DNA of 64,000 nt, taken from positions 8,928-72,927 of the forward strand of contig CAZMAT010000004.1 of NCBI GenBank assembly GCA_964564435.1. Direction: 5' to 3'. Every line of letters begins with the position of its first letter. The stretch's first letter is position 1. Made by a program: the position numbers and the translations under genes. Below the pieces are notes generated by a model. That model had not been told where the DNA came from, did no database searches, and saw only the letters and a list, made by a program, of their open reading frames with translations. Of this stretch, positions 1 through 25,213 are shown one piece after another. Source of the DNA: an uncultured bacterium (GTDB lineage: Bacteria; Fermentibacterota; Fermentibacteria; Fermentibacterales; Fermentibacteraceae).

Positions 1-526
1 GGGGGTGGACACCTCGGGCGCTCTCTGCAAGAGCGGCCGTGTTCTGGGGAACGGAACCCGCAGCGACATCGCCGACATCGTCTTCGTGAAGCCGGATACC
101 TTCCAGGCCGCGAACACGAAGCTCATAGCCCGGGAGATCGACTCGTTCAACGCGGCCCTCGCGAAGGAGGGCAGGCCGTACCTGCTGGCAGGTCCCGGCC
201 GCTGGGGATCGTCCGATCCGTGGCTGGGCGTCCCCGTGAACTGGAGCCAGATAAGCGGGGTGAAGGCGATCATCGAGGTCACTCTTCCCGGGATGAATGT
301 CGATCCGTCTCAGGGGTCGCACTTCTTCCAGAACATGACTTCGCTCCGGATAGGATATTTCACGGTGTCGCACTCCGACGCGTCGGAGACGATGGACTGG
401 CAGTGGCTCCTGTCCCTGCCCGCGGCGGGGGAGACCGCATCGGTGAGGCATGTAAGGCTCGAGAATCCCCTGACCGTCATGATAGACGGAAGGAGCGGGC
501 AGGGGCTGGTGCTCAAGCCGCGCTGA
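1..526 (+). CDS. hypothetical protein, 5'-truncated at window start (C-terminal 173 aa)
   Basis: The frame is open from the window edge to a stop at 524-526. Codon usage is GC3-rich like the neighbouring genes. I recognise no diagnostic motif. Confidence 0.4.
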   Translation, partial: GVDTSGALCKSGRVLGNGTRSDIADIVFVKPDTFQAANTKLIAREIDSFNAALAKEGRPYLLAGPGRWGSSDPWLGVPVNWSQISGVKAIIEVTLPGMNVDPSQGSHFFQNMTSLRIGYFTVSHSDASETMDWQWLLSLPAAGETASVRHVRLENPLTVMIDGRSGQGLVLKPR

Positions 527-550
527 GGGAAAGGCGGAGAATCTCCGGAG

Positions 551-1423
551 GTGTCAGTGGAACCCGGCAGGATCGTATCGAAGAAGCCGGCAGGCCCCGA
601 CGTGACGATGTACACGGTGTTCGCGCCCGACATCGCGCGTCGTCGCAGACCCGGCCAGTTCGTGATAGTGAGGATCTCGGAACCCGGCGAGCGCATCCCG
701 CTCACGATCGCGGACGCCGATCCCGGAGCCGGGACCGTGAGCCTCGTCGTGCAGTCCGTGGGCAAGTCCACCAGGCAGATGGCGATGCTCGAGGAGGGCT
801 CGGGCCTGCAGGACATCGCAGGCCCCCTGGGCACGCCGACTCGCATCGAGAAGTTCGGTACCGTGATCTGCTGCGGCGGCGGCATAGGCACGGCGCCTCT
901 GTATCCCATCACGCAGGCGCTTCACGAGGCCGGCAACAGGGTCCTGACCGTGCTGTGCGCCAGGACCGCCGGACTCCTGGTGATGGTGGAGGAGATGGAG
1001 AAGGTCAGCGACGAGGTGCTGGTGATGACCGACGACGGCTCCAGGGGCACGAAGGGGCTTGCCACTGACGGGATCAGGATCGTCGCGGGGCGCGAACCCG
1101 TCGACCATGCCTTCGCCATCGGCCCCCCCGTCATGATGAAGTTCGCGAGCGCCGTCACCAGGGAGCTCGGCATACCCACGACCGTCAGCCTGAACCCGAT
1201 AATGATAGACGGCACCGGGATGTGCGGTTGCTGCCGGGTGACGGTCGGAGGCAGGACTCGGTTCGCCTGCGTCGACGGACCGGAGTTCGACGGGCACCTG
1301 GTGGACTTCGACGAGCTGATGAGGCGGCTTTCTGCGTACAGGGACCACGAGCGCTCGGCCATGGAGCATTTCGAGGGCGGTTGCAGGCTCACCGGATCGG
1401 GGGGACATGGAAGCGAAGGATAG
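551..1423 (+). CDS. nfnA: NfnA/SudB-like subunit (FAD/NAD(P)-binding, C-terminal CGCCR [2Fe-2S] motif; PyrK-like fold)
   Basis: GTG start at 551. Length is 290 aa. It has a GGGIGxAP dinucleotide-binding motif and a C-x-C-C cluster motif near the C-terminus. It overlaps the downstream GltD-like gene by 17 nt. Confidence 0.8.
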   Translation: MSVEPGRIVSKKPAGPDVTMYTVFAPDIARRRRPGQFVIVRISEPGERIPLTIADADPGAGTVSLVVQSVGKSTRQMAMLEEGSGLQDIAGPLGTPTRIEKFGTVICCGGGIGTAPLYPITQALHEAGNRVLTVLCARTAGLLVMVEEMEKVSDEVLVMTDDGSRGTKGLATDGIRIVAGREPVDHAFAIGPPVMMKFASAVTRELGIPTTVSLNPIMIDGTGMCGCCRVTVGGRTRFACVDGPEFDGHLVDFDELMRRLSAYRDHERSAMEHFEGGCRLTGSGGHGSEG

Positions 1424-2867
1424 GCTCGCGATACCGCCCCAGCCCATGCCGGAGCAGGCTCCTTCGGAGAGGGTCGGGAACCTGCGCGAGGTCCCCCTCG
1501 GCTTCACGCCTGAGACGGCGATGGTCGAGGCGAGGCGCTGCCTGCAGTGCAAAAAGGCGTTCTGCACCGAGGGATGCCCCGTGGGAGTGGACATCCCGGG
1601 CTTCCTCGAGGCCGTGGAGAGGGGCGATTTCGCGTCGGGCATCGGGATCATCAGGCGGAGGAACGCGCTCCCCGCCGTCTGCGGCAGGGTCTGCCCGCAG
1701 GAGCAGCAATGCCAGCTCGCCTGCACGGTGGGCAAGTTCCACCACGACCCCGGGAAGTCCGTGAGCATAGGCAGGATCGAGCGCTTCCTCGCGGACTGGG
1801 AGAGGGAGGCCGGGGCGGCCCAGGCTTCCGTCAAGGCTCCGCCCACCGGCAGGAGGGTCGCCGTCATCGGGAGCGGCCCGGCGGGGCTCACCGTGGCGGG
1901 CGACCTCATCCTCCTCGGGCATTCCGTGACTGTGTTCGAGGCCCTCCACAAGGCCGGAGGCGTACTCGTCTACGGCATCCCGGAGTTCAGGCTCCCCAAG
2001 GCCATCGTCAGGCGCGAGGTGGAGCTGCTCGAGAATCTCGGGGTCGAGTTCAGGCTCGACACCATCGCGGGCAGGACCCGCCCCGTGGACGAGCTGGTGC
2101 GCGAGTACGACGCCATGTTCATCGGGTCGGGCGCCGGGCTCCCCAAGTTCCAGGGGATCCCGGGAGAGAACCTCCTGGGGGTCTATTCGGCCAACGAATA
2201 CCTGACCAGGGCCAACCTGATGAAGGCTTACGACTTCCCGGCGGCGGACACCCCGATCCAGAGGGGGAGGACAGTGGTGACGGTCGGGGGGGGCAACGTG
2301 GCGATGGACTGCGCCAGGACGGCCCTCAGGATGGGCGCCGAACGATCCCTCGTCGTCTACAGGAGGTCCGAGGCCGAGATGCCGGCCCGCCGCGAGGAGG
2401 TGCACCACGCCCGGGAGGAGGGCGTCGAGTTCCACCTGCTGGAGAATCCCGTCGAGATCACCGGAGGGCCGAAGGGCTGGGTGGAGGGCGTCAGGATCGT
2501 GCGCATGACCCTCGGCGAGCCTGACTCCTCCGGGCGCCGCAGATCCATCCCGATCGAAGGTTCGGAATTCGTGCAGGAGGCCGACGAGGTGCTGGTGGCG
2601 ATAGGGAACAGCCCGAATCCGCTAGTCCCGTCGTCGTTCCCCGAACTGGAGACCACACGGTGGGGCGGCATAGTCGTGAACGAGGCGACCGGGCAGACCT
2701 CGGTCAGGGGGGTCTTCGCCGGCGGAGACATAGTCCTCGGCGCGGCCACCGTGATCCTCGCGATGGGGCAGGGCCGCATAGCCGCGCGCGCGATGCATGC
2801 ATACCTCTCCACCGGAAGGTGGGAGGGGCTGGAAGAGATAACCGGAGCGGAGGGGGGCCAGAGTTGA
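1407..2867 (+). CDS. nfnB: NfnB/SudA-like, glutamate synthase small-subunit-type NADPH oxidoreductase (2x[4Fe-4S] + FAD + NADPH)
   Basis: 486 aa. Two Cys clusters are present (CLQCKKAFCTEGCP and AVCGRVCPQEQQCQLAC). GSGPAGL and GGGNVAMD Rossmann motifs and a GGDIV motif match GltD/NfnB. Confidence 0.85.
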   Translation: MEAKDRLAIPPQPMPEQAPSERVGNLREVPLGFTPETAMVEARRCLQCKKAFCTEGCPVGVDIPGFLEAVERGDFASGIGIIRRRNALPAVCGRVCPQEQQCQLACTVGKFHHDPGKSVSIGRIERFLADWEREAGAAQASVKAPPTGRRVAVIGSGPAGLTVAGDLILLGHSVTVFEALHKAGGVLVYGIPEFRLPKAIVRREVELLENLGVEFRLDTIAGRTRPVDELVREYDAMFIGSGAGLPKFQGIPGENLLGVYSANEYLTRANLMKAYDFPAADTPIQRGRTVVTVGGGNVAMDCARTALRMGAERSLVVYRRSEAEMPARREEVHHAREEGVEFHLLENPVEITGGPKGWVEGVRIVRMTLGEPDSSGRRRSIPIEGSEFVQEADEVLVAIGNSPNPLVPSSFPELETTRWGGIVVNEATGQTSVRGVFAGGDIVLGAATVILAMGQGRIAARAMHAYLSTGRWEGLEEITGAEGGQS

Positions 2868-3856
2868 AGGGCAGGGTGCTGATAATCGACGACGAAGCCG
2901 AGATAAGGCGCAACCTGACTGTGGGTCTGACCCAGGAGGGGTATGGCGCCACCGCCTGCCCCGACGGCATCTCCGCCATACATGAGCTGAACAGGGCGGG
3001 CACCGCCGGCGAGGGATACGACTTCCTCGTCACGGACATATTCATGCCCGACATCGACGGGATGAAGATCCTCAAGGTCATCAAGAACCAGTACCCCGAC
3101 CTGCCGGTGCTCGTGATCACGGGCTTCGGCGACGACAGGCTGAAGTACACCGCCCTCTCCGAGGCCAACACCGCCTATCTGGACAAGCCCTTCGAGATCG
3201 ACGACCTGGTGCGGGCGCTGGAGTCGCTGTCCCCGGGGGCGGCCACAGGGGCGCCCGAGGCGTCGGCGCACGGGGGCGAACCGGTCGTCAGGGAGTCCGT
3301 GAGCGCCTATCTGACGGTGAGGATCACCGAGCCGGACAGGAGCATGGAGATCTTCAACGACCTGAGGTCCCTGGAGGGCGTCCAGTCATGCGACGCGGTG
3401 CGGGGCGACGTTGACATCATCCTGCTGGGGCAGGCCTCCTCCGAGGAGGGGATCAGGGCGATCTTCTCCCGGGTGGGCGCGGTGCGCGGCGTGGAGGTCG
3501 TCTCCGTCTCGCCCGTCGAGAGACCCAGGCTGGACAGGGACGTCAGCGAGTTCATCGAATCCTACCGCAGGACAGTCAAGGTCCAGACCGGGGCCGAGGC
3601 CAGGAGGCAGCCGGGGACCACCAGCTACATCATAGCGGACATAGACCCGGGCTCGATCCAGAAGATCTTCACCACGGTCTTCTTCATCGACGAGGTGATC
3701 TTCTGCGACGTGATAGACGGCGGCAGGAGGCTGGTCGGGATGATCACGGGGCAGGGGGCCGTGGGCAGGACTCCGAGGATCGTCGAGAAGCTGAGCCAGA
3801 TCGACGGCGTTCTCAGGGTGCGCGAGGCCAGAGTCATCCGACTCGTCGACGAGTAA
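2864..3856 (+). CDS. response regulator with N-terminal receiver domain and two C-terminal RAM (Lrp/AsnC-type ligand-binding) domains, no DNA-binding domain
   Basis: TTG start overlaps the nfnB stop. The receiver motif reads LIIDDE...D...FMPDIDG...KP. The C-terminal half carries two repeats with the AsnC-C-terminal pattern (hydrophobic strand, then GxxDiil, then VxxV). Confidence 0.7.
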   Translation: MKGRVLIIDDEAEIRRNLTVGLTQEGYGATACPDGISAIHELNRAGTAGEGYDFLVTDIFMPDIDGMKILKVIKNQYPDLPVLVITGFGDDRLKYTALSEANTAYLDKPFEIDDLVRALESLSPGAATGAPEASAHGGEPVVRESVSAYLTVRITEPDRSMEIFNDLRSLEGVQSCDAVRGDVDIILLGQASSEEGIRAIFSRVGAVRGVEVVSVSPVERPRLDRDVSEFIESYRRTVKVQTGAEARRQPGTTSYIIADIDPGSIQKIFTTVFFIDEVIFCDVIDGGRRLVGMITGQGAVGRTPRIVEKLSQIDGVLRVREARVIRLVDE

Positions 3857-3872
3857 AGGACCGGGAGCACCT

Positions 3873-4382
3873 ATGGCCCAGGAATCGTTCAACTACAGGC
3901 TGTGGCGGTACGACGGCGCTCCGGGCGAGCTGATCCCGCTGCTCCAGTCGGCCCAGGAGCACTTCGGGTACATCCCCAGGGGCGCGATAAGGCACATCTC
4001 CTCCGTGACGGGGGTGCCCGAGGCGACGATCTACGGCGTCATCACGTTCTACAGCCAGTTCAGGCTGCAGCCGATGGGCCGGTTCGTCATCCGGATCTGC
4101 GACGGGACGGCGTGTCACGTCTCGGCCTCGAGGCAGCTCCTCGACGCTATCAGGGACGAGCTCTCCATCGAGATAGGCGAGACCGACTCCGAGAGCCTCT
4201 TCACGCTCACCACGGTGGCCTGCCTCGGATGCTGCTCCCTCGCTCCGGTGATGATGATCAACGACGAGACATTCGGCAGGCTCACACCGGCCGCCGTGAG
4301 GAAGATCCTGAAGGACTTCCGCCGCCGCCGCGACGCCGAAGGGAACGGATCTGCCGCAACCGGATGCGGGGTGGAGGCATGA
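3873..4382 (+). CDS. NuoE/HydC/StnA-like thioredoxin-fold [2Fe-2S] subunit
   Basis: 169 aa. The CDGTACH and CLGCC cluster motifs are typical of the NuoE 24-kDa family. An ATGA overlap couples it to the next gene. Confidence 0.85.
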   Translation: MAQESFNYRLWRYDGAPGELIPLLQSAQEHFGYIPRGAIRHISSVTGVPEATIYGVITFYSQFRLQPMGRFVIRICDGTACHVSASRQLLDAIRDELSIEIGETDSESLFTLTTVACLGCCSLAPVMMINDETFGRLTPAAVRKILKDFRRRRDAEGNGSAATGCGVEA

Positions 4383-6151
4383 AGAGGATAATCGTCGGAA
4401 TGGGGACATGCGGGCTCTCCGCGGGGGCGCAGGCATCGTACGATGCGCTGAAGCCGCTCGCGGAGGGTTCCGGATGCGAGCTCTCGATCTCCGGCTGCAT
4501 CGGGATGTGCTTCAGGGAGCCGCTGGTCGAGGTGCGCGACGGAGACAGGTGCTTCGTGTACGGAGAGGTCACCCCGGAGAGGGCTGCCGAGATCTGGAGG
4601 CGTCATGTGCAGGGCGGCGAGGTCGTCTCCGACTGGGTGATCCATTCCCGCGGTCCGGGATGCGTGGACGGCGGTACGGAGAAGGACTTCCTCTCGCTCC
4701 AGAAGAGGATCGTCCTGCGCAACTGCGGCATCATCAACCCCGAGTCCATCGCGGAGTACGAGGAGGCCGGCGGCTATGCCGCCCTCCGCAGGGCGCTTTC
4801 CGCGATGACACCCGAATCGATCATCCAGGAGATCAAGGATTCCGGGCTCAGGGGCAGGGGAGGCGGAGGGTTCCCGACCGGGCTCAAGTGGTCCCTCGCC
4901 GCGGCGAACCCCGGTGACGTCAAGTACCTGGTCTGCAACGCGGACGAGGGCGATCCGGGCGCCTTCATGGACAGGTCGGTGCTGGAGAGCGACCCCCACT
5001 CGGTGCTGGAGGGGATGATGATCGCCGCGCGGGCGATCGGGACGGCGACCGGCTACATCTACTGCCGGGCCGAGTATCCGCTCGCGATCAGGCGCCTCGA
5101 GAAGGCGCTCGCCGACGCCCGCGGCCGGGGATACCTGGGCCGGAACATACTGGGCTCCGGCATGGATTTCGACATCACGATAAAGCAGGGTGCCGGGGCC
5201 TTCGTCTGCGGGGAGGAGACCGCCCTCTTCGCGTCGATCGAGGGCGAGCGCGGGATGCCGAGGATCAGGCCGCCGTTCCCGGCGGAGAAGGGCCTCTGGC
5301 GCAAGCCGACGAACAACAACAACGTGGAGACGTACGCCAACGTCCCGTGGATCATCGCGAACGGATCGGCGGCCTTCGCTGCGATAGGCACCGAGAAGAG
5401 CAGGGGGACGAAGGTCTTCGCTCTCGCCGGAAGGGTCGCGAAGGGCGGCCTCGCCGAGGTCCCCATGGGGATGAGCATCAACGACCTGGTCTTCAGGATA
5501 GGCGGAGGCATCAAGCAGGGCAGGGCGTTCAAGGCCGTCCAGATGGGCGGGCCCTCCGGCGGATGCATACCCGCCTCGCTCGGCGACACGCCGGTGGACT
5601 TCGAGAACATCCCCAGGACGGGCGCGATCATGGGCTCGGGCGGGATGGTCGTGCTCGACGACACAACCTGCATGGTGGAGATCGCAAGGTTCTTCCTCGA
5701 GTTCACCCAGAACGAGTCGTGCGGCAAGTGCACGTTCTGCAGGATAGGCACTCTCAGGATGCTGGAGGTTCTCCAGCGCATCACCAGGGGCGAGGGCACG
5801 CCCGAAGACCTGGGCCGGCTGGACGAGCTGGCGAGGAGGATCAAGGAGGCGAGCCTCTGCGCGCTGGGGCAGACCGCACCCAACCCGGTCCTCAGCACGA
5901 TGAGGTACTTCAGGGAGGAGTACGAGGCGCACATAGAGCGCCACTCCTGCCCGGCGGGCAACTGCCTGGCGCTCGTCGAGTTCTCGATCGATCCCGCTCT
6001 CTGCACGGGCTGCACCCTCTGCGCCAGGAACTGCCCGGTGGGCGCGATCGCGGGCGAGAGGAAGCAGCCGCACAGGATCGACAAAGACAAGTGCGTGAAG
6101 TGCGGCAGGTGCATATCCAGCTGCAACTTCGGCGCCGTGAAGAAAGCGTAG
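4379..6151 (+). CDS. NuoF/HydB/StnB-like flavoprotein subunit (N-terminal Trx-like 2Fe-2S domain, FMN/NAD(H) site, C-terminal 2x[4Fe-4S] ferredoxin domain)
   Basis: It has GRGGGGFPTG (FMN), the 51-kDa signature ESCGKCTFCR and a C-terminal CTGCTLCARNCP...CVKCGRCISSC. The longer upstream in-frame extension of the 3902 ORF is Arg/Pro-rich junk. Confidence 0.9.
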   Translation: MKRIIVGMGTCGLSAGAQASYDALKPLAEGSGCELSISGCIGMCFREPLVEVRDGDRCFVYGEVTPERAAEIWRRHVQGGEVVSDWVIHSRGPGCVDGGTEKDFLSLQKRIVLRNCGIINPESIAEYEEAGGYAALRRALSAMTPESIIQEIKDSGLRGRGGGGFPTGLKWSLAAANPGDVKYLVCNADEGDPGAFMDRSVLESDPHSVLEGMMIAARAIGTATGYIYCRAEYPLAIRRLEKALADARGRGYLGRNILGSGMDFDITIKQGAGAFVCGEETALFASIEGERGMPRIRPPFPAEKGLWRKPTNNNNVETYANVPWIIANGSAAFAAIGTEKSRGTKVFALAGRVAKGGLAEVPMGMSINDLVFRIGGGIKQGRAFKAVQMGGPSGGCIPASLGDTPVDFENIPRTGAIMGSGGMVVLDDTTCMVEIARFFLEFTQNESCGKCTFCRIGTLRMLEVLQRITRGEGTPEDLGRLDELARRIKEASLCALGQTAPNPVLSTMRYFREEYEAHIERHSCPAGNCLALVEFSIDPALCTGCTLCARNCPVGAIAGERKQPHRIDKDKCVKCGRCISSCNFGAVKKA

Positions 6152-6157
6152 GCCCTG

Positions 6158-9100
6158 ATGGACACCGTCAAGCTGATCGTCAACGGGACGGAGGTCGAGG
6201 CCCGGCCGGGGCAGACGATTCTGGAAGTGGTCCGCGAGCACGGGCTGGACGACATCCCCACCCTGTGCCACTCCCCGGAGCTGGAACCGTACGGCTCGTG
6301 CTTCGTCTGCGTGGTCGAGGTGAAGGGGAGGCCCGTTCTGGTGCCGTCCTGCGCCACGCGCGTCACCGCGGGGATGGAGGTCGAGACCCGCAACGAGCGT
6401 GTCAGGGCCTCGCGGAAGACGGCCCTGGAGCTCCTCCTGTCCAACCACTACGCCGACTGCGTTTCGCCCTGCAAGCTCGGATGCCCCGCGGGGGTTGACG
6501 TCCAGGGCTATCTGGCCCTCGCCTCGATGGGAGAGACCAGGAAGGCCGTCGACCTGATACGCGAGAGCAACCCCCTCCCCGCCGTGTGCGGCAGGGTCTG
6601 CGTGCGCAAGTGCGAGGCGGTCTGCCGCAGGGCGGACGTGGACAGCCCGGTGGGAATCAATGCGGTGAAGCGCTACCTGACGGATGCGCCAGGCGTCTAT
6701 GACGGCCAGGTCGAGCGCGGGCCGCTCAACGGGAAGAGCGTCGGGATAGTCGGCGGGGGCCCCGCGGGGCTCTCGGCGGCCTGGTTCCTCGGCCGGCGCG
6801 GGTATGCCGTCACGGTCTACGAAGCGATGGAGAAGGCCGGCGGGATGGTGAGGTACGGCATCCCCGAGTACCGGCTGCCCGACGAGGTGCTCGACCGGGA
6901 GATCGACTTCGTGGCCCGCGCGGGCGTCGAGATCAGAACCGGCGTGAAGGTCGGCAGGGACATCCCGTTCGACGAACTGAGACATCTCCACGACGCCGTC
7001 TTCGTCGCGGCAGGGGCATGGGCGAGCAACCCCATGAAGGTCGAAGGCGAGTTCACGACCGCCGGGGTCGTGGGAGGCATCGAGTTCCTGCGCGAGAAGT
7101 ACCACGACAGGTCGCCCATCTCGGGCACCGTCGTCGTCGTGGGCGGCGGGAACACCGCCATGGACGTGGCGAGGACCGCATGGCGCCTCGGAGCCGACAA
7201 GGTGATCCTCCTCTACCGCAGGACGAAGGCTGAGATGCCGGCCGATCCCATGGAGATCGAGGATGCGCTGCACGAGGGGGTGGAGATCATGGAGCTCGCC
7301 GCCCCGGTGGGCATCGGGGCCGTGGACGGAAGGCTCTCCTCCCTGCGCTGCATCAGGATGAAGCTCGGCGAGCCCGACTCCTCGGGGCGAAGGAGACCGG
7401 TGCCGATGGAGGGCTCCGAGTTCGACCTGCCATGCGATCTCGCCGTGGCCGCCATAGGCCAGTCGCCTCTGCTGGAAGGGCTCGCCGGTGCCGGGGGGCT
7501 CCCCGGTACCACGAAGTGGGGCACGGTGAGCGTGGATACGGCCACCATGAAAACCGACGTCGAAGGGGTCTTCGCGGGCGGAGATGCCGCCGACGACGGC
7601 CCGACCGTGGTGATAGACGCGATAGCGGACGGGCGCACGGCCGCCCTGTCGATCCATGCGTTCCTCGGGGGCGGCGATCCGCCGCATCCGTTCATAGTCC
7701 GCAAGGACATGTGGTCCAAACCCGGCAAGGCCGAACTGGGCGACATCGCCGAGAGCCCCCGCCACGAGGTCCACATGCTGCCCGTAGCCGAGAGGGAGGG
7801 CAGCTTCTGCGAGGTGGCGACCGGGTTCGAATGGGAGGATGTCCTCCACGAAGGGGCCAAGTGCCTCTCCTGCGGCTGCCTGAGGTACGACGACTGCGAG
7901 CTGAGGCTGCGCGCGGAGGAATACGGGGCGGATGTGGCCCACTACGCCGGGCATGTCCGGAGGCACAGGCCGGACGACAGGCACCCCCACATCCTCTACG
8001 ATCCCAACAAGTGCGTGCTATGCGGGCGGTGCATAAGGACATGCGCCAGGGTGCTGCCCGTCGCCGCCCTGGGTCTGGTAGGGCGGGGCTTCCGCACGGA
8101 GATGCGGCCCGCGATGAACGACCCGCTGGTGGAGACCAACTGCGTGAGCTGCGGGAACTGCGTCGACGCCTGCCCCACGGGTGCGCTCACGGTCAGGCTC
8201 CCGTATCCCGGTAGGGCGTGCCTCGAGGTCGTAGAGCGGGCGACGCGATGCTCCGTATGTTCGATCCAGTGCCCGGTGAGGGTGATGTCGCACGGATCCG
8301 CCCGCTACTACATCACATCCTCGGGCGTGCCGGGCGACTACCTCTGCAGGTCCGGGCGCTTCGCGAACGAGCTCTACATCTCGAGCAGGCGCATTTCGGC
8401 CCCCTCGGTCAGGCGCGGAGTCGAAACCGTCGTGACCGATGCCTGTTCCGCCGTCCGGGAGGCAGTCACAGGGCTCCGGAAGGCGGCAGCGGAATACGGC
8501 CCCGGAGCCGTGGCGGTCTTCGTGTCGGCCGAATCCACGATCGAGGAGATGCACCTGGCCTCGCGGATCGCCAGGGAGGGCCTCGGGACGGGGAATATCG
8601 GCTCGATCGCCGCGTCGTGCTCGTCATACGACCCGGCTGCCCTGGACGGGATGCTCGGGTTCACCGCCTCGACCGCCGGCCGGGAGGCCCTGGCGCAGGC
8701 CGACCTCGTGATCTGCAGCAACACGAGCCTGGAGGGCGACCATCCCGTGCTGGCCGTCGACATCCTCGAGGCCGTCCGGAAGAGGGGGGCCGGACTCGTC
8801 GTGGTCAACTCGGCCCTGGACGACGCCGACCGCATCCTCTCGCACGCGGTGCTCGACCCCGTAAGAGGTACGGCCTCCGTCCTCTGGGCCGGCATCGTTC
8901 GCAGGCTCGCCGAGACGGGCTCAGTCACGAAGGAGGCGGTCGCGTCCGTCCCAGGCGGGGGAGAGTTCCTATCGAGCCTGGGGCGAACGTTCGAGGAGGC
9001 CTGTGCCACGGCCGGGGTCGATCCCGGCTCTGCCCTGGCGGCAGTCGAGGCGATAGCCGGCGCGTCCCGAATCGTGATCATACACACGCCGGACAGGGCG

Positions 9101-9856
9101 CGCGACAGGGCCAGGGGCGACCTGGAGATCCTGGCCGGGCTCGCCGTGCTCGCCAACGCATCGGGCAGGCGGGCGGACATCCTGCTCCCGAGAGTGCTCC
9201 CGAACGGCGCCGCCCTGGAGGTGGCCGGAGCGTCTCCAGCATTCCTGCCCGGGCGCAGGCAGGCCGGGGAGAGGGAGGGGCATCCGGATCTCGCCCGGGC
9301 TCTCGAGGACGGCTCCATCAGGGCCGCTCTCGTGATTGGAGAGGATCCTCTCGGCAGCGACCGTACGGCCACCTGGTTCAGGAATGTCGAATTCCTCGCG
9401 GCCCTGGACTGGGCCTCCACCGAGACCACCCGCGCCGCCGGCGTCGTGCTCCCCGGATCGACCGGGCTCGAAGGATCGGGCACGAGGCTCGACTTCACCG
9501 GCTCTGCAAAGGCTTTCAGCAGGGCGGTAGCGCCGCCCGCCGGAATCGGAACGGCCGGCATGCTTGCGATGATAGCCGGGGAATGCGGCATCTCAGCCGA
9601 CTTGGAGACGATCGGTACGACCGTGAGGAAAGCGCTGGAAGCCGGATCCCCGGGGGTGGCGGGCTTCTACTGGAACGATGGAGTTCATCCCGTCTGGGAC
9701 GGAAAGGGCAGGCTCGGGCCGGTCGAGACGGGGCTCGAGCCCGGCAGGTTCTGCCCCCCGCTGACGGTGACTGCGCAGTACAGGGCCGGGATCGCAGAGG
9801 TCGGCAATGCCCGCTACCGCGTCCAGTCCGGTGTCAGAGGAAAAAATGTCAAGTAA
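6158..9856 (+). CDS. StnC-like large subunit: NuoG-type N-terminal [2Fe-2S] + inserted GltD-type FAD/NADPH oxidoreductase module + His/Cys [4Fe-4S] cluster domain + C-terminal molybdopterin-oxidoreductase-like (degenerate) domain
   Basis: 1232 aa. Residues ~1-80 read CHSPELEPYGSCFVCVVEV. Residues ~90-520 carry GGGPAGL, VVVGGGNTAMD and GGDAADD, like GltD/NfnB. HILYDPNKCVLCGRCIRTC and CVSCGNCVDACPTG follow. I see no TSCCP, MPCxxK or ExMACxxGC H-cluster motifs. Confidence 0.8.
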   Translation: MDTVKLIVNGTEVEARPGQTILEVVREHGLDDIPTLCHSPELEPYGSCFVCVVEVKGRPVLVPSCATRVTAGMEVETRNERVRASRKTALELLLSNHYADCVSPCKLGCPAGVDVQGYLALASMGETRKAVDLIRESNPLPAVCGRVCVRKCEAVCRRADVDSPVGINAVKRYLTDAPGVYDGQVERGPLNGKSVGIVGGGPAGLSAAWFLGRRGYAVTVYEAMEKAGGMVRYGIPEYRLPDEVLDREIDFVARAGVEIRTGVKVGRDIPFDELRHLHDAVFVAAGAWASNPMKVEGEFTTAGVVGGIEFLREKYHDRSPISGTVVVVGGGNTAMDVARTAWRLGADKVILLYRRTKAEMPADPMEIEDALHEGVEIMELAAPVGIGAVDGRLSSLRCIRMKLGEPDSSGRRRPVPMEGSEFDLPCDLAVAAIGQSPLLEGLAGAGGLPGTTKWGTVSVDTATMKTDVEGVFAGGDAADDGPTVVIDAIADGRTAALSIHAFLGGGDPPHPFIVRKDMWSKPGKAELGDIAESPRHEVHMLPVAEREGSFCEVATGFEWEDVLHEGAKCLSCGCLRYDDCELRLRAEEYGADVAHYAGHVRRHRPDDRHPHILYDPNKCVLCGRCIRTCARVLPVAALGLVGRGFRTEMRPAMNDPLVETNCVSCGNCVDACPTGALTVRLPYPGRACLEVVERATRCSVCSIQCPVRVMSHGSARYYITSSGVPGDYLCRSGRFANELYISSRRISAPSVRRGVETVVTDACSAVREAVTGLRKAAAEYGPGAVAVFVSAESTIEEMHLASRIAREGLGTGNIGSIAASCSSYDPAALDGMLGFTASTAGREALAQADLVICSNTSLEGDHPVLAVDILEAVRKRGAGLVVVNSALDDADRILSHAVLDPVRGTASVLWAGIVRRLAETGSVTKEAVASVPGGGEFLSSLGRTFEEACATAGVDPGSALAAVEAIAGASRIVIIHTPDRARDRARGDLEILAGLAVLANASGRRADILLPRVLPNGAALEVAGASPAFLPGRRQAGEREGHPDLARALEDGSIRAALVIGEDPLGSDRTATWFRNVEFLAALDWASTETTRAAGVVLPGSTGLEGSGTRLDFTGSAKAFSRAVAPPAGIGTAGMLAMIAGECGISADLETIGTTVRKALEAGSPGVAGFYWNDGVHPVWDGKGRLGPVETGLEPGRFCPPLTVTAQYRAGIAEVGNARYRVQSGVRGKNVK

Positions 9857-9955
9857 TCGGATTGGAGTCATGGATCGCCGGAACACTCGGGAGAACTGAA
9901 TACCAGTACGAGCATAAACATAAGTACAGCAACATTATATGCTCTGTGAGCATTC

Positions 9956-9984
9956 TTGACGCGCAATCATATGGCGGGCATATT
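9956..9984 (+). promoter_or_regulatory. candidate sigma70-type promoter for the TonB-receptor gene (TTGACG-17-CATATT) in an AT-rich 190-bp intergenic island
   Basis: This is the only AT-rich stretch between 9857 and 10044. The -35 element matches 6/6 and the -10 element 4/6. An RBS (AAAGGGGGGA) follows before the ATG at 10045. Confidence 0.35.
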
Positions 9985-10044
9985 GGAAATGGGTGAGTAC
10001 AGTGCATTTTATCCTCTGACACCGGACGGAAAGGGGGGGACGAG

Positions 10045-12414
10045 ATGATGGTTGTTCTTTTCTGCGCCGTACTTGCGTCGTCACAGGCGGATCAAGGTGT
10101 GACTTCCGCCGTCGTACCACGTGACTCCGGTACTGCTGTCGCCGGTCTTCCGGCGCTCGCAGAGGACAACCCCGGGCCCCTGCCCGGGCTGGTGACGGCC
10201 CTCGACGGAATGCACCACCGCGGCTGCCAGGCCGGAGGCATCGCGTCGCTGCTCGATGGATTCCCCGCCTGGTCGGCGCTCACGGGAGAGCCCTTCCTGA
10301 TAGCCCCTTCGGCCGCCGTCGAGAAGGAGGCCATCCTGACAGGCGGCCGGGCAGCAGGCGTCTTCTCCGGCCTGTCGGGTGCGACCGCCATCGTCACCAG
10401 AGCGCCCGAAACCCCGGGGCTTTCGGGTGAGGCCAGCTTCGGGATGGGTTCCATGGAGACCGGCGACATGACGCCTCTCTGGCACCCCCTCGTCCCCTCG
10501 CACGAGACGCGCCCCCTGCTCGAGGACTGCCTCACCGCCTCAGCAGCGGTCGAGGGGGCCGCGGAAGGCGTGATGCCTGGCCTGACCACGGTGCTCGTCT
10601 CCGGGGAGTTCGTCACATCCGGACCCGCCGACGCCGATGACGGCTCCTGGCGCGAGAACTGGGACAACAACGGCTACGAGAGATGGGAAGGCCTCGCGAG
10701 GCTCGGCTGGATCAAATCCGAATCCTTCGATGCGGACATCACCTTCGCCCTTCACGAGAGGGAGAGGGGCTGGTCGGACTGGTCCTGGAGCAGGTTCGAG
10801 GATCTCTACGTCGACCCCGAACCGTCGTCGCCGACGTACGGAGACACTCTCGGCGGTGGAGTCGGCATCGACTGCTCCCTCCCCACCCGCTACGACGAGG
10901 GATCGCTCGTCGGGCTCGATGCGAGCTTCGGCCTCGGTTCCTCCGGGACCCTCGGCGCCTCCCTGGCTGTGACCGGATCACGGATCTACACGAGGATCGA
11001 CGACCCCGCGGGGGGATATCTGGGCGAAGGCCTCGACGAGGAGTGGGAGTGGGCGGGCTACACACCTCCGGAACTCATCCTCGATTCTGACGGATTCGTC
11101 CGCAGCGGCGTGAGCGACCTCCTCTGGTACGACTCCGAGGACGATGCGCTCTCCGCAGGGCTCGACTGGAGCCTCGCCGCGGGGCGGCATTCCATCTCCG
11201 CCGCTTCAGGTCTGATACTGCACGACATGGAGGAGACCTGCGTCACCCTGCTCGACTCCCAGACAACCGTGGCCTTCCAGGAATGGGAGGCCTCCCCGAA
11301 GGAGGGCTTCCTCTCGGCAAGCGACGCGATCGACCTCTCCGGCGGTCTCGCAGTGACCCCCGGGCTGCGGCTGGGCTTCTTCGATCCCGCGTTCGACTTC
11401 ACGGAACTACCCATGCCCATTCCGCCGGGAGCGAACACCGGCGGCCCGTTGCCCGGCGGGAGCCTCTCGACCGAAGCCTCCGCGAAGACCTGGCTGGACA
11501 TGTCCCTGGCTGTCGTCCAGAGGCTCGACGCCCATCATTCCGTCACCGTCGAGTACTCGCGCGTTTCCAGGATGCCCCGCCCGGTCTTCCTCTACCCCGG
11601 CACGGATTCGATCCTCGTGAGCGAAGGCCAGTTCGTGGGCAACCCCGATCTCGACCCCGAGCGATGCTCCGATTTCTCGCTAGGTCTCTCCCGGACATGC
11701 CCCGGCCGCGGCGAGATGGGAGCATCCGTCTTCTACCGCACCATGGACGACCTGGTGAGGACCGAGCTGCGGGAGGACCCCGGCCAGGGCTCGTACCGCC
11801 AGTTCGACAACGGGGCGACAGCCACCGTGCAGGGTCTCGAGGTCTCCCATCGTGCAGGCCTGTCCGACTGGCTGGCCTGGTCCGCCACATACACGCTGAG
11901 CAAGGCCGAGGGCACCTGGTCGGTCCTCCAGCGGCCCTCGGACTATCAGTGGGCGACGCCCTGGATCTCCGAAGCGGACGAGTTCCCCCTGGAATGGGAC
12001 CGCAGGCACTCCCTGGACCTGTCGCTGACCAGTGAGTTCCCCGCCGGCTACGGCGCCCTGGGAGGGCTCGGAGCCGGGCTCGACTGGAGCTACGCGAGCG
12101 GATTCCCGCTGGATACGTCGTATTACGGCGAGGCTCCGGCGACCAGGAACGCGGAGCGGTACCCAGACATGACCAGGCTCGATGCATCCGTCTGGAAGCG
12201 GCACAGGCTGGGAGGCCTGGATCTGACCCTGAGGCTCGACGTCGTGAACGTTTCACAGGAGCGGAACATCGCCTGGGTGGTCGACCCGGAGTGGTACTTC
12301 GCCGAGCTGGGGGGTGACGGGGATCCGGAACTCGATCCGACGGGAGCCATGCATAACAGCCACGCCTTCGCCTCCCCGAGGCACTTCATGCTGGGGCTCT
12401 CGATAGGCTGGTAG
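10045..12414 (+). CDS. TonB-dependent receptor-like outer-membrane beta-barrel protein
   Basis: It has a signal peptide (MMVVLFCAVLASSQA). A plug-like N-terminal region reads SLLDGFPAWSALTG...GVFSGLSGATAIVTRAP. The C-terminal aromatic ending is ...GLSIGW. Confidence 0.6.
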   Translation: MMVVLFCAVLASSQADQGVTSAVVPRDSGTAVAGLPALAEDNPGPLPGLVTALDGMHHRGCQAGGIASLLDGFPAWSALTGEPFLIAPSAAVEKEAILTGGRAAGVFSGLSGATAIVTRAPETPGLSGEASFGMGSMETGDMTPLWHPLVPSHETRPLLEDCLTASAAVEGAAEGVMPGLTTVLVSGEFVTSGPADADDGSWRENWDNNGYERWEGLARLGWIKSESFDADITFALHERERGWSDWSWSRFEDLYVDPEPSSPTYGDTLGGGVGIDCSLPTRYDEGSLVGLDASFGLGSSGTLGASLAVTGSRIYTRIDDPAGGYLGEGLDEEWEWAGYTPPELILDSDGFVRSGVSDLLWYDSEDDALSAGLDWSLAAGRHSISAASGLILHDMEETCVTLLDSQTTVAFQEWEASPKEGFLSASDAIDLSGGLAVTPGLRLGFFDPAFDFTELPMPIPPGANTGGPLPGGSLSTEASAKTWLDMSLAVVQRLDAHHSVTVEYSRVSRMPRPVFLYPGTDSILVSEGQFVGNPDLDPERCSDFSLGLSRTCPGRGEMGASVFYRTMDDLVRTELREDPGQGSYRQFDNGATATVQGLEVSHRAGLSDWLAWSATYTLSKAEGTWSVLQRPSDYQWATPWISEADEFPLEWDRRHSLDLSLTSEFPAGYGALGGLGAGLDWSYASGFPLDTSYYGEAPATRNAERYPDMTRLDASVWKRHRLGGLDLTLRLDVVNVSQERNIAWVVDPEWYFAELGGDGDPELDPTGAMHNSHAFASPRHFMLGLSIGW

Positions 12415-12420: not shown

Positions 12421-13932
12421 TTACGTGTCGCGCGGAGCGGCGGGGCCGTCATGGCCCCGCCGCATGCGTCCTGCGAGGATCGCGGCGATGTGGTCAGGCA
12501 GGTCCCTGAGCTTCCTGTAGACCGTCATCTCGGTCTTCGTGCCGAAGCGGCCCTCGAGCAGCCTGACCGCCTGTGCGAGGACGGCGCCCGGCCGTCTGAC
12601 GAGCCTCGTGGCGTAGAATACGGCGTACACCGTCCACCTGTAGGCATCGAGCCTCCGGTAATCCGGGCGCCAGACCGGCGAGAAGCAGAGTTCGTCATAC
12701 TCCCGGAAGCCCTTGAGCGCCTCCTCCTCCATCGCGGGGGTGGCCGGGAAGGGCGTGACGACCGGCATGACGACCTCGTCCGCCCCGGACGAGGCCAGGC
12801 GGCCGACGTAGCGCCTCGTCATCCTCCTGTCCGCAGGCGTCTCGCCGGGATAGCCCGTGGCCATGAAGGCGCAGGTCTTCATGCCCAGCGAGGAGGCCTT
12901 CCTGAACAGGTGCGGCACCCTGTCGATGTCGGCCACCTTGTTCATCAGGGCCAGCACACGTGGAGAGCCGGTCTCCGGGCTGAGCGAGATGTACCTGCAT
13001 CCGGCCTTCGCCAGGAGTTCGAGCAGCTCGTCGTCCAGCGTCTCCATCTTGAGGCCCGAGGGGAAGCAGAACGTGAAGCCCGGATCGTGGCCTGCGAGCA
13101 TGCGGCATATCGAGACGGCACGGTCCCTGTCGATCGCGAAGTTCTCGTCCTGGATGTGGAAGTCGGTAAGCCCCCACAGCCTGTTGTGCCACTCCATCTC
13201 CTCCACGACCTTCGCCGCGCTCCGCGAGGTCCATTTCCCGCCTGACATGAGCGGCGCCTGGCAGAACGAGCACTTGTACGGGCATCCGCGGGAGGTGACG
13301 ATGTTCATGTACTTCCCCGCGAACGGACCGTGTCCGTATCGGAGCCGCCAGTAGTTCTCGAGCGGAAGCAGGTCGACCGCCCCGAAAGGCTGATGTTCGA
13401 GTTCGACCGGTCCTGCCGATCTAGGCGATATCCCCCTTGCGGAGGCGAGCCCGTCCTGCCCGTCGGGATTTTCGCCGCGCTCGAGCGCGTCCAGGAGGCG
13501 CGGGAGGCGCTCCTCTCCCTCGCCCATGACCACGTAGTCGGCTCCGGCAGCGATGAAGGCCTCGGGGACGAACGTCGCGTGATATCCCCCGACCACGGTG
13601 ACGATGCCAGGATGACCGGCCTTCACCGCGGCGAGTATCTCGCAGGCCATGGAGTGCTCGCCCGCGCAGTGGACGCTAACGCCGGCGACGGGGGTCGACG
13701 GATCGATCCTCCCTGAGATGCCGGCCGGGGTCAGCCCGCGGGCCGTGTACCTCGACCGGAACCTGTAGAAGTCGTGCGGTCTTTCGCCATATCCGTCGAC
13801 GATCGAGACCTCGTGGCCGCGGGCCCGGACCGAAGCTGCGAGATACGCTATCCCCGATGGGATGCCCGGGATGCTCCCGTACAGGTCTGCCGAGAGATGG
13901 ACGACCGGCGTCCTGACGAGGGCAATCCTCAT
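12421..13932 (-). CDS. cobalamin-binding (class B) radical SAM enzyme
   Basis: 503 aa. The N-terminal B12-binding fold reads MRIALV...GHEVSIVDG. The radical SAM CxxxCxxC reads SRGCPYKCSFCQ. A 4-nt overlap joins it to the upstream rSAM gene. Confidence 0.85.
   Translation of the reverse strand: MRIALVRTPVVHLSADLYGSIPGIPSGIAYLAASVRARGHEVSIVDGYGERPHDFYRFRSRYTARGLTPAGISGRIDPSTPVAGVSVHCAGEHSMACEILAAVKAGHPGIVTVVGGYHATFVPEAFIAAGADYVVMGEGEERLPRLLDALERGENPDGQDGLASARGISPRSAGPVELEHQPFGAVDLLPLENYWRLRYGHGPFAGKYMNIVTSRGCPYKCSFCQAPLMSGGKWTSRSAAKVVEEMEWHNRLWGLTDFHIQDENFAIDRDRAVSICRMLAGHDPGFTFCFPSGLKMETLDDELLELLAKAGCRYISLSPETGSPRVLALMNKVADIDRVPHLFRKASSLGMKTCAFMATGYPGETPADRRMTRRYVGRLASSGADEVVMPVVTPFPATPAMEEEALKGFREYDELCFSPVWRPDYRRLDAYRWTVYAVFYATRLVRRPGAVLAQAVRLLEGRFGTKTEMTVYRKLRDLPDHIAAILAGRMRRGHDGPAAPRDT
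12437..12463. terminator. GC-rich 11-bp-stem hairpin (gcggcggggcc-gtcat-ggccccgccgc) about 23 nt after the TonB-receptor stop, lying inside the 3' end of the convergent rSAM CDS
   Basis: A perfect inverted repeat is seen. There is no U-tract, so it may be a factor-dependent or bidirectional stop signal. Confidence 0.3.
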
Positions 13933-15437
13933 GCGGAGCTGTCGTTCCCGGTCGGCATCGCCGGTTTGCCGGAGTCATCGGGGTTTCCGGCCGCCGGTTC
14001 GGCGGAGTAGCTCGCAGTGGCGAGCAGGAGGAATCCCTTGAGGTACTTGGCGAGATCGTAGAAGCTGCGGATCGAGAGCACCTTCCGGATCACCATGCGC
14101 GGGTTCACGTAGAATCTCCTGTGCCCGGCCTGTATCAGGAACCGGATCTGCTCCTCGGTCATCCCCTCGGGCACGAACGACACGTTCTTGAAGTTGAACC
14201 TGTTCTCGGTGAACTTGGCGGGCTTGAGCCTCCCGCTCGTCAGGTCCTCGTACACGCTCGTCCCCGGAAGGGGCGTCAGGTTGACGAAGACGGCGTAGTC
14301 CAGGCCTATGGAGCACGCGAAGTCTATGGTCTCGAGACCCTCCTGGAACGTCTCGCCCGGGATGCCGAACATGAACGTGCCGTAGGCCTCGATCCCGGCC
14401 TTCGTCGTCATCCCGACGGCATTCCTGATCTGTTCGAGGGTGGTTCCCTTGCGGAGCGTATCCAGGTTCTTCTGCACGCCGGATTCGATCCCGTACAGGA
14501 TCCTCCAGCAGCCGGCCCTCTTCATCAGGCGGAGAAGCCGTTCGTTCACCCTGTCCACCCGGGCGTTGACCGCCCAGTAGACCCCCAGCCTCCGCCGGAT
14601 CATCTCCTCGCAGAAGGCGGTGGCCCTCTCCTCGGACAGGGTGAAGGTGTCGTCCCAGAAGGCGATGTCCCGCACGCCGTGCTCCCGTCTGAGCATCTCG
14701 ATCTCGTCGACGATGTTGACGGCGGACCGCATCCTGACCCTGGTGTCGGTATGGCAGAAGATGCAGTGGAACGGGCAGCCTCTGGCCCCGATGATGTTCG
14801 CGTGCGGGAGCCTCTTGTAGAAGGTCGGTGAGGGGAGGTAGTCCCTGACGTCGACGAGGCCGTGGGCAGGGAAGGGCAGCGTGTCGATGTCCGCAACCTG
14901 TGCCCTGGGCTCCGTCCGGACCAGTGCGCCCGACCCGTCCCTGCAGATCAGTCCCCGTATCCCCCCCGTCGGAGAACCTGAAGCCAGGGCTGCCGCCAGC
15001 TCCCTCATCGTGTGTTCGCCTTCTCCGTAGATCAGGAAGTCGATGGCGGGACACTCCTCGAAGCAGCGCTCCATCCAGAGCGTGGGATGGATGCCCCCGA
15101 CTACGATGCGGACTGATGGGAGCCGCTTCTTCAGCTCGGCTATCATCCACCGGGAGACCTCCCAGTCGACGCTGGTGATGGTGATGCCCACCAGGTCCGG
15201 AGAGATCGCGCCGAGCTTCTCGACCATCCGCTCGAACGGGTTGAACAGACCTTCGAGGTAGACGACCTCGTGCCCGTCCTGCATCAGGAAAGGCGCCAGA
15301 TAGAGAAGGGAGGGTGACGGGACGACGTTCACCAGCGGCTTGATGTGGAGCCAGCCGAACAGGCGCCTGCGCCGGTTCATGAAGTCATGCTGGTCCTGCT
15401 CCCAGGACGCCGGCATCGTAAGCAGAACTATCTTCAA
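13929..15437 (-). CDS. cobalamin-binding (class B) radical SAM enzyme
   Basis: Likely TTG start at 15437 (LKIVLLTMP...), preceded by AAGGA. The cluster motif reads ARGCPFHCIFCH. The upstream in-frame extension to 15947 is low-complexity junk. Confidence 0.8.
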   Translation of the reverse strand: MKIVLLTMPASWEQDQHDFMNRRRRLFGWLHIKPLVNVVPSPSLLYLAPFLMQDGHEVVYLEGLFNPFERMVEKLGAISPDLVGITITSVDWEVSRWMIAELKKRLPSVRIVVGGIHPTLWMERCFEECPAIDFLIYGEGEHTMRELAAALASGSPTGGIRGLICRDGSGALVRTEPRAQVADIDTLPFPAHGLVDVRDYLPSPTFYKRLPHANIIGARGCPFHCIFCHTDTRVRMRSAVNIVDEIEMLRREHGVRDIAFWDDTFTLSEERATAFCEEMIRRRLGVYWAVNARVDRVNERLLRLMKRAGCWRILYGIESGVQKNLDTLRKGTTLEQIRNAVGMTTKAGIEAYGTFMFGIPGETFQEGLETIDFACSIGLDYAVFVNLTPLPGTSVYEDLTSGRLKPAKFTENRFNFKNVSFVPEGMTEEQIRFLIQAGHRRFYVNPRMVIRKVLSIRSFYDLAKYLKGFLLLATASYSAEPAAGNPDDSGKPAMPTGNDSSA

Positions 15438-15600
15438 GGAGGAATCCTTCACGATCGGGTGGTCCGTACCGCTGCGGATTATAGGACCGCCTGCGCCGGC
15501 CGAGCAAGCAAGAAGGGGCGCGGGAACCCGGTCGAAACCCGTCCCCCCGCGCTCCTGCGGAGCTATAATGCCCGCAGCCCGCAGAACCGGAAGGAATCGC

Positions 15601-16614: not shown

Positions 16615-16642
16615 CCGATGCCCGGCGTGCCGTCGGGCGGGG

Positions 16643-17356: not shown

Positions 17357-17429
17357 CCGGGCCTTCCTGTCTCTCGGTAAGAATGCGGGAAGCTACTCCA
17401 GTCCCTCCCGCGGCGCAAGGATCCGACGC

Positions 17430-19178: not shown

Positions 19179-19179
19179 A

Positions 19180-20175: not shown

Positions 20176-20176
20176 G

Positions 20177-21616: not shown

Positions 21617-21750
21617 CGGCCGACCTCTTTCGCAAATGGTTGCAGAATATGGCAGCCCCCGCCCGGCCGTGCCAACGCGGTTCTGCCCGGGAGAACCGGG
21701 ATATGTCCGGGCTCGTGCTTGTACACGACTCCACATGGGGCTATACTGAT

Positions 21751-22197: not shown

Positions 22198-22211
22198 CGG
22201 AGGGAGTCCCC

Positions 22212-23111: not shown

Positions 23112-23213
23112 AGCCCTGCGGGGCTGCCGCTGCCCCGGGAGCCTTGCACACAGGCCCCCGATGGAATAAACTCGCAGAAAGGAGGCAGGGAGGGGTTCCG
23201 GCATGGCAGAACC

Positions 23214-23243: not shown

Positions 23244-23279
23244 CCGTGTCCACCAACCATTCGCCAGAAGGAGGAATCG

Positions 23280-25196: not shown

Positions 25197-25213
25197 CGGC
25201 ACATGTCCGCAGG

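Follow-up and report, generated by a model that had tools for sequence, protein, structure and literature searches.

A receiver–tandem-RAM gene forms a conserved cassette with the Stn transhydrogenase genes and lies beside nfnSL in an uncultured Fermentibacterota lineage

The DNA analysed here, hereafter the window, is a stretch of 64,000 nucleotides from contig CAZMAT010000004.1 (assembly GCA_964564435.1), which belongs to an uncultured bacterium of the Fermentibacteraceae in the phylum Fermentibacterota. The first 16 kb have a G+C content of 64-69%, and here six plus-strand genes are predicted to encode two transhydrogenases, NfnSL and Stn (also named NfnABC), and, between them, a protein with a receiver (REC) domain followed by two RAM domains, which we call REC-RAM. 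Open reading frame coordinates agree with the layout given in a preliminary description of this DNA, six plus-strand frames spanning 551-9856 with junctions of -17, -4, +16, -4 and +6 nt. In order, these are an nfnS/nfnL overlap of 17 nt (which becomes a 22-nt gap if nfnL begins at Met14), a 4-nt overlap of nfnL with the REC-RAM gene (TTGA), a 16-nt gap from that gene to stnA, a 4-nt stnA/stnB overlap (ATGA) and a 6-nt gap from stnB to stnC. The same gene calls are found on independent metagenome contigs that encode an identical 1232-aa protein. The genes, with the evidence for each prediction, are as follows.

551-1423, plus strand: nfnS (nfnA), NfnSL small subunit, predicted FAD/NAD(H) and [2Fe-2S] sites (PDB matches, NCBIfam)
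1407-2867, plus strand: nfnL (nfnB), NfnSL large subunit, predicted bifurcating FAD, NADP(H) site and two [4Fe-4S] clusters (PDB matches)
2864 (TTG start)-3856, plus strand: gene for the REC + tandem-RAM (Lrp/AsnC ligand-binding) protein, 330 aa (Pfam, profile, AlphaFold2)
3873-4382, plus strand: stnA / nfnC (BfuC), predicted NuoE-like [2Fe-2S] subunit (PDB matches)
4379-6151, plus strand: stnB / nfnB (BfuB), predicted NuoF-like bifurcating core subunit (end-to-end PDB alignments)
6158-9856, plus strand: stnC / nfnA (BfuA), predicted GltD/NuoG-type large subunit, 1232 aa (Pfam, PDB alignments)

Comparison of loci shows the REC-RAM gene to be an obligate neighbour of stnABC. A scan of one genome per species yielded a relative of the protein in at least 350 genomes, of which the best 80 are all uncultured bins; loci were then searched with the window proteins and only evaluable loci were used as denominators. 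The gene directly following REC-RAM is stnA in 81/81 loci, with stnB and stnC next wherever the contig continues. Homologues in a large protein collection are full length and 68-98% identical, and their named sources are Fermentibacterota, Eisenbacteria, Krumholzibacteriota and some 'Deltaproteobacteria' bins; a copy with 98% identity is listed at NCBI under Candidatus Fermentibacter sp. Relatives of only 28-34% identity likewise directly precede NuoE-NuoF-StnC-like genes. The tandem-RAM family as a whole is small, an exhaustive search of 1.84 billion representatives yielding 125 clusters at 50% identity, mostly with the order REC + RAM + RAM. REC-RAM and stnABC thus constitute a conserved four-gene cassette across several uncultured phyla. 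The preliminary description had spoken of an embedded regulator; a receiver-RAM gene is indeed present, but as the first gene of the cassette it is not incidental to the operon, and its product has no DNA-binding domain. As controls, Firmicute genomes were reached with the Sporomusa ovata StnB sequence taken from a PDB alignment, and the REC-RAM gene is missing from all three stn loci compared, those of Sporomusa silvacetica (MTHFR-stnABC), Caldicellulosiruptor (stnABC alone) and Clostridium carboxidivorans P7. We found no description of this cassette in the literature on receiver + RAM regulators or on Nfn/Stn in Fermentibacteria.

In Pfam, the REC-RAM protein consists of a receiver domain and then two Lrp/AsnC-type RAM domains, and AsnC_trans_reg is matched in 24/24 members of the family. 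Each half of the C-terminal part matches the stand-alone RAM proteins 2zbc, 2cvi and 2e1a in PDB profile searches, so that the receiver-RAM assignment made earlier from the bare sequence is upheld. AlphaFold2 predicts a REC fold and two beta-alpha-beta-beta-alpha-beta units with a predicted local distance difference test score (pLDDT) of 83; this value was obtained once distant members had been added to an alignment that gave pLDDT 60 with close homologues only. Neither Pfam, the PDB profile nor the predicted structure contains a DNA-binding domain or helix-turn-helix. Residues D9, D10, D58, T86 and K108 of the receiver are invariant in 38 clade members, and in a distant clade Glu or Ala replaces the phospho-acceptor at position 58. 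Considered as a two-component response regulator, the protein has the receiver acceptor set and is missing a DNA-binding or enzymatic output domain. Considered as an Lrp/AsnC (feast/famine) regulator it fails, having two RAM domains and no helix-turn-helix, and resembles only the stand-alone RAM subgroup. Since only RAM domains follow the receiver, REC-RAM should not be called a transcription factor. No solved structure or published description of a REC + tandem-RAM architecture was found.

Genes 4-6 are assigned, on sequence and profile evidence, to an orthodox Bfu-type NfnABC (= Stn). The best solved relative of each subunit is the matching Stn/NfnABC subunit, in agreement with the Stn-type identity first proposed for this NuoE/F/G module. 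For StnA the best PDB matches (E 1e-47 to 1e-50) are T. sibiricus NfnC (9n5u_C), S. ovata StnA (8oh5_A) and Caldicellulosiruptor NfnC (9bov_C); it aligns end to end with 9n5u_C and 8oh5_A, and its cluster cysteines align with those of its PDB relatives. StnB matches 9bov_B (E 6e-250) and 8oh5_B (E 8e-246) over the full length, with all cysteine motifs aligned. Its parts are an FMN and NAD(H) site, a [4Fe-4S] cluster, an N-terminal [2Fe-2S] domain and a C-terminal 2x[4Fe-4S] ferredoxin site, and it is 59-62% identical to homologues of related Firmicutes (tblastn).

StnC has the Pfam order Fer2_4 (3-79), Fer4_20 (101-177), Pyr_redox_2 (194-492), Fer4_Nqo3 (610-678) and Molybdopterin (772-1127). 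A GltD-type module between the [2Fe-2S] and the NuoG-type Fe-S domains had been proposed at the outset, and this order holds. Residues 4-1156 are collinear with residues 4-1116 of Caldicellulosiruptor NfnA (9bov_A, E 4e-222), which places the GltD insertion at the same point as in StnC/NfnA; S. ovata StnC (8oh5_C) is the next-best match (E 1e-200). The GltD-like segment has intact Rossmann motifs, GGGPAGL for FAD and GGGNTAMD + YRR for NADPH, that line up with Caldicellulosiruptor NfnA. Where NfnL has Arg333, StnC has Asp (EMPADPME) and the Caldicellulosiruptor protein Glu, which is consistent with the published view of a non-bifurcating flavin. Seven cluster motifs (Cys 37/48/51/65, 101/105/109, 144/148/152/156, 569/572/574/580, 619-629, 662-672 and 698/701/705/730) comprise 28 cysteines that are invariant in 57/57 orthologues; the motifs from 101 on align with Caldicellulosiruptor NfnA, and those from 569 on also with S. 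ovata StnC. The motifs correspond to the ligands of one [2Fe-2S] and six [4Fe-4S] clusters, the assignment of each motif to its cluster being inferred. Published work likewise gives Caldicellulosiruptor NfnA one [2Fe-2S], six [4Fe-4S] and one FAD.

In the C-terminal domain of StnC, Cys821 aligns with the catalytic Cys of the R. capsulatus formate dehydrogenase FdsA (6tg9_A), with the next His replaced by Ser, and is found in only 4/57 orthologues. A surviving formate dehydrogenase active site was rejected on these two grounds, which point to an inactive domain, as in S. ovata StnC. Pfam matches no H-cluster domain, no Fe_hyd_lg_C and no Molydop_binding in StnC; together with the 6tg9_A alignment and the 57 orthologues, this sustains the earlier statement that the large subunit has no hydrogenase or formate dehydrogenase active site. 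The preliminary description had further suggested a novel Stn variant, set apart from StnC by an extra NuoG-type molybdopterin-like C-terminal domain. The Molybdopterin match at 772-1127 is real, but S. ovata StnC and Caldicellulosiruptor NfnA carry the same domain in a collinear alignment; Kumar et al. (PMC10482914) describe S. ovata StnC (1172 aa) as a [2Fe-2S] head (1-101), a GltD-like part (102-565) and a catalytically inactive FdhF-like part (683-1172). The suggestion is thereby already refuted and keeps next to no probability.

Genes 1-2 are predicted to encode a canonical NfnSL (NfnAB) transhydrogenase, as first proposed. The best PDB matches of NfnS are T. maritima NfnA (4ylf_A, E 3e-90) and P. 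furiosus NfnI-S (5jca_S, E 1e-89), the [2Fe-2S] motif of Asp and three Cys (MIDGTGMCGCCR...C) is conserved, and the protein scores above the cut-off of NCBIfam NF004862. NfnL best matches T. maritima NfnB (4ylf_B, E 2e-166) and P. furiosus NfnI-L (5jca_L, E 1e-144). Three features distinguish true NfnB from look-alike ferredoxin:NADP+ reductases (PMC12221290): an nfnA gene upstream that overlaps it, an extended N-terminal part and Arg333. In the window, an nfnA-like gene lies directly upstream of the Fer4_20 + Pyr_redox_2 gene, in keeping with the published gene order; the N-terminus of NfnL is long, its alignment to 5jca_L starting at residue 8 of the latter; and the equivalents of both Glu126 (IERF) and Arg333 (EMPARREE) are present. 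A plain ferredoxin:NADP+ reductase of the Cac_0764 type was ruled out by these three published criteria (PMC12221290).

NfnSL and Stn recur side by side. The nfnSL pair lies directly upstream of REC-RAM-stnABC in 39/70 evaluable loci, and by phylum label in 26/26 of Fermentibacterota, 1/8 of Krumholzibacteriota and 0/3 of Eisenbacteria. In two loci of the distant REC-RAM clade (L091 and L092, 9001-18900), a convergent nfnL-nfnS pair comes right after stnC; these loci also have a glycogen-phosphorylase-like gene divergently upstream of the cassette. In C. carboxidivorans P7 (L096, 2984-12369), one strand carries rex, nfnS, nfnL, a split second nfnS-like gene (5516-5974, 5958-6407) and stnABC. 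Published distributions differ: Nfn and Stn are 'almost mutually exclusive' in acetogens (PMC7483475), and of the two types Thermococcaceae have 'not both' (PMC9304861). The preliminary description had called the co-occurrence notable. Against these distributions the co-encoding is indeed unusual, but the adjacency in a cultured Clostridium makes the pairing itself less novel; the passages of the literature consulted do not mention the Nfn-Stn cluster of this acetogen. Proximity in three different arrangements strengthens the case for a functional link between the two enzymes.

Such repeated co-location would also suggest complementary roles, and with them non-redundant reactions: NfnSL might be an NfnII/Xfn-like enzyme or a ferredoxin:NADP+ reductase, or the Stn-like complex might use another acceptor, as has been proposed for the sulfur reductase Nso. 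There are precedents, P. furiosus NfnII having both subunits without running the Nfn reaction (PMC12221290), and Nso being a close relative of StnC (PMC10482914, PMC7483475). We consider this unlikely. NfnS is much nearer to NfnI and T. maritima NfnA (303-306 bits for 5jca_S and 4ylf_A) than to NfnII (5vj7_B, E 1e-60, 208 bits) and all NfnB hallmarks are present; StnB matches characterised StnB/NfnB from end to end (E ~1e-246 to 1e-250), and StnC has the full cluster set.

Further genes with a regulatory signature are linked to the cassette. A PAS histidine kinase gene directly follows stnC in 36/52 evaluable loci, usually together with a gene for a sigma-54-dependent regulator. In the window the corresponding genes, which overlap by 4 nt, are:

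25324-27330, plus strand: cytoplasmic PAS histidine kinase (tblastn; Pfam PAS_4, HisKA, HATPase_c)
27327-28718, plus strand: sigma-54-dependent (NtrC-type) response regulator (tblastn; Pfam Response_reg + Sigma54_activat + AAA_lid_14)

The window kinase, in which no hydrophobic segment is found, is 55-59% identical to the kinases of two relatives (L008 and L010; tblastn), and the window regulator is the homologue of the one following the kinase in relatives (tblastn). A CH-x10-C-x2-C motif in or near the PAS domain is a possible metal or redox-sensing site. The REC-RAM clade with intact Asp58 has the kinase. In the distant, Asp-less clade no kinase follows stnC in L091 and L092, the two loci that reach past stnC. 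This co-distribution supports the kinase as phospho-donor, and the linked PAS kinase is the probable donor of the REC-RAM protein. By the same comparison, the Asp-less clade keeps its stn linkage, so the core role of the family would be independent of phosphorylation.

The promoter of the cassette is best seen in relatives. A promoter-like TTGAC(T/A)-N17-TAnnnT precedes the REC-RAM start codon at a constant spacing in 60/83 loci, where chance would give ~0.01 per locus by our own estimate, made with no computed control. The distance is ~70 nt in Fermentibacterota and ~118 nt in Krumholzibacteriota. The element is strongly conserved; that of Fermentibacterota (L015-L033 and others) reads TTGACTTT-N15-TAGCGT and that of Krumholzibacteriota (L055-L090) TTGACAA-N16-TATnnT; both are followed by a leader (60-110 nt across both phyla). 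Most nfnSL-bearing relatives have the site inside the 116-123 nt that separate nfnL from the REC-RAM gene. The window, L001 and L011-L013 lack it; there these two genes overlap or stand 5 nt apart, which argues that the single operon is a derived fusion of two units that stand apart in most relatives. The promoter before the REC-RAM gene thus appears to have been lost in the window lineage.

The transcription unit probably also extends beyond the window, because another gene ends 24-30 nt upstream of nfnS (in the window and in L001).

5-526, plus strand: 3' end of a receiver + PPDK_N gene (989 aa in full; cut at the window edge; complete copy at L001 1400-4369)

Pfam finds Response_reg (68-139) and PPDK_N (ATP-grasp, 435-804) in the full protein, and a conserved promoter-like TTGACC-N17-TATnnT lies upstream of its gene in relatives. 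The unit is thus probably one of seven genes with the receiver + PPDK_N gene first. The single operon at 551-9856 that was originally described holds in its layout, but the unit probably begins left of the window, and the fusion is specific to this lineage. The receiver + PPDK_N gene is kept before nfnS in several Fermentibacterota loci and would supply the second receiver protein of the probable operon. No Rfam family was found within window positions 1-10200, and no intrinsic terminator in the operon region or after stnC.

The kinase and promoter data bear on whether REC-RAM might act purely in transcription, as a phosphate sink or connector for the kinase / sigma-54 pair or in mixed oligomers with an Lrp/AsnC regulator. 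Mixed oligomers with full-length Lrp/AsnC regulators have been proposed for stand-alone RAM proteins, and the RAM domains of REC-RAM are closest to these stand-alone proteins. Linkage of the kinase and sigma-54 regulator to the cassette in those 36/52 loci, and the intact phospho-acceptor set of the kinase-bearing clade, would fit as well. Against this, the cassette promoter looks sigma-70-like. Neither a strict pattern search of the window nor scoring of the regions 5' of the REC-RAM gene, of nfnS and of the PPDK_N gene gave a convincing sigma-54 site, though a few GG-N10-GC candidates turned up in Krumholzibacteriota. Moreover, Asp-less members cannot be phosphate sinks, yet keep their Stn linkage, and no Lrp/AsnC gene was seen among the listed loci. 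A purely transcriptional role is possible but doubtful.

We propose instead, with a probability of roughly 0.6, that REC-RAM is a dedicated, non-DNA-binding signalling partner of Stn, controlled by Asp58 phosphorylation and a RAM ligand, and that NfnSL and Stn are differently regulated isoenzymes whose genes have been fused into one operon. Both enzymes would catalyse 2 NADPH + NAD+ + Fd(ox) <-> 2 NADP+ + NADH + Fd(red), where Fd is ferredoxin. In NfnSL, the FAD of the large subunit would be the site of bifurcation. The NfnL-like module within the 1232-aa subunit of Stn would do no more than accept electrons from NADPH, and these would pass along the Fe-S clusters to an FMN/Fe-S bifurcation site in the NuoF/NuoE-like core. 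REC-RAM would integrate two inputs, phosphorylation at Asp58 by the PAS kinase and a small molecule, probably an amino acid, bound by the RAM pair. It would act by contacting other proteins, these being the Stn complex itself or else the pair of kinase and sigma-54 regulator. NfnSL may then serve as the simple, fast isoenzyme and Stn as the signal-controlled one, together setting the NADPH : NADH : ferredoxin balance of a lineage that would ferment amino acids and sugars. In Ca. Fermentibacter, loss of the REC-RAM promoter would leave nfnSL and the cassette translationally coupled in one operon. Metatranscriptomic work has Fermentibacterota fermenting amino acids including glutamate, and in L001 a glutamate dehydrogenase gene lies divergently upstream of the receiver + PPDK_N gene. 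The two observations are in line with a function in NADPH disposal or supply and are suggestive only.

Several points weigh against this proposal. The window kinase is 15 kb from stnC, and no sigma-54 -24/-12 element was found upstream of the cassette. The Asp-less clade shows that the phosphorylation input to REC-RAM would be dispensable. A physical link of REC-RAM to Stn, to the kinase or to a ligand is one that we infer. The same stoichiometry twice brings no obvious thermodynamic benefit, and 'differently regulated isoenzymes' is an argument from context only. Finally, conservation can be read in two ways. Within the clade, median identity is 70% for REC-RAM, 69% for StnA, 72% for StnB and 59% for StnC, the REC-RAM value being raised in part by the selection of loci, which were ranked on this protein. 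Between the two REC-RAM clades, REC-RAM is ~30% identical and the enzyme subunits 46-67% (StnB 65%), a divergence far above that of the enzymes which would fit a regulator better than a fixed subunit.

These figures also bear on whether REC-RAM could be a stoichiometric fourth subunit of Stn, a built-in allosteric gate and not a free signalling protein. Its invariant position directly before stnA (81/81), its within-clade identity, comparable to that of StnA and StnB and above that of StnC, the lack of a DNA-binding output, and the retention of the stn association by Asp-less members would all be expected of a subunit. The native S. ovata and Caldicellulosiruptor complexes, however, are heterotrimers without such a subunit (S. 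ovata: PMC7483475), the between-clade figures set REC-RAM apart from StnB, and the within-clade identity is biased by the choice of loci. A fourth subunit is improbable.

Taking the signalling-partner proposal one step further, REC-RAM may bind Stn directly and switch it on, off or in direction in response to a ligand of the amino-acid type and, in the clade with Asp58, also to phosphorylation, with NfnSL as the unregulated partner. We offer this as speculation with low odds. If true, REC-RAM would be the first protein known to be dedicated to the post-translational control of an electron-bifurcating enzyme.

Other genes surround these loci. Just downstream of the operon, 10045-12414 (plus strand) encodes a 789-aa TonB-dependent-receptor-like beta-barrel protein, with a promoter-like site (9956-9984) in the AT-richer 188-nt spacer before it. 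A minus-strand cluster rich in B12/radical-SAM genes (12421-25262) is the main separator of stnC from the kinase; it comprises three B12-binding radical SAM enzymes (12421-13932, 13929-15947 and 20177-21736), a family-2 glycosyltransferase (16643-17356) and large proteins without a Pfam match (17430-19178 and 22692-25262). In an Eisenbacteria locus (L008, 1-9332), an rnfCDGEA cluster runs divergently from the cassette, with a multihaem cytochrome gene at its head and, as its last genes, those for a 691-aa fusion (RnfB-like + Fer4_20 + Pyr_redox_2) and a 982-aa fusion (NuoG/Fdh-like + NuoE-like).

NfnSL and NfnABC/Stn have been described as unrelated solutions to one reaction, and organisms are said to carry either. 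Entire uncultured lineages, common members of anaerobic digester and sediment communities, retain the two enzymes side by side, with REC-RAM and usually a kinase joined to the Stn type. If REC-RAM controls Stn, it would offer a handle on the regulation of bifurcating enzymes and on the need for two transhydrogenases, and would improve metabolic models of how these phyla ferment amino acids and sugars. If it is an ordinary regulator, the recognisable REC-RAM + stnABC cassette is still a useful annotation. The enzymes are of known kinds; the novelty lies in the partner protein with its REC and tandem RAM domains, in the link of this protein to a kinase and in the repeated pairing of Nfn with Stn.

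Compared with known systems, the window combines familiar parts in a different setting. Like NfnSL of T. maritima (4ylf) and P. furiosus NfnI (5jca), its NfnSL is encoded by two overlapping genes, small subunit first, with all cofactor ligands including the NfnS Asp and NfnL Glu126 and Arg333; unlike them, the pair is fused into an operon with a second, unrelated transhydrogenase. Each C-terminal domain of REC-RAM shares, by profile and predicted secondary structure, the RAM fold of stand-alone RAM and Lrp/AsnC proteins (2zbc, 2cvi, 2e1a, 1ri7), and the protein differs in having two such domains in tandem, fused to a receiver, and no helix-turn-helix. With the StnABC/NfnABC of S. ovata (8oh5), Caldicellulosiruptor saccharolyticus (9bov) and T. 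sibiricus (9n5u), the window enzyme has in common gene order (stnA-stnB-stnC, as in S. ovata SOV_1c07740-60 and in L094 and L095), domain order, GltD insertion point, cluster motifs, FAD/NADPH motifs, an inactive FdhF-like C-terminal domain and no Arg at the Arg333 position. The large subunits encoded at the three Firmicute loci compared share only ~35% identity with StnC (tblastn). What distinguishes the cassette from Firmicute Stn is the REC-RAM gene upstream and, usually, the PAS kinase and sigma-54 regulator after it, neither of which accompanies those three loci. The closest parallel in arrangement is C. carboxidivorans P7, where stnABC is likewise immediately preceded by nfnSL in the same orientation and the cluster includes a gene for a redox-linked regulator; there, however, the cluster is headed by Rex, a DNA-binding NADH sensor, REC-RAM is absent, and the split nfnS-like gene sits at the position that the REC-RAM gene occupies in the window.

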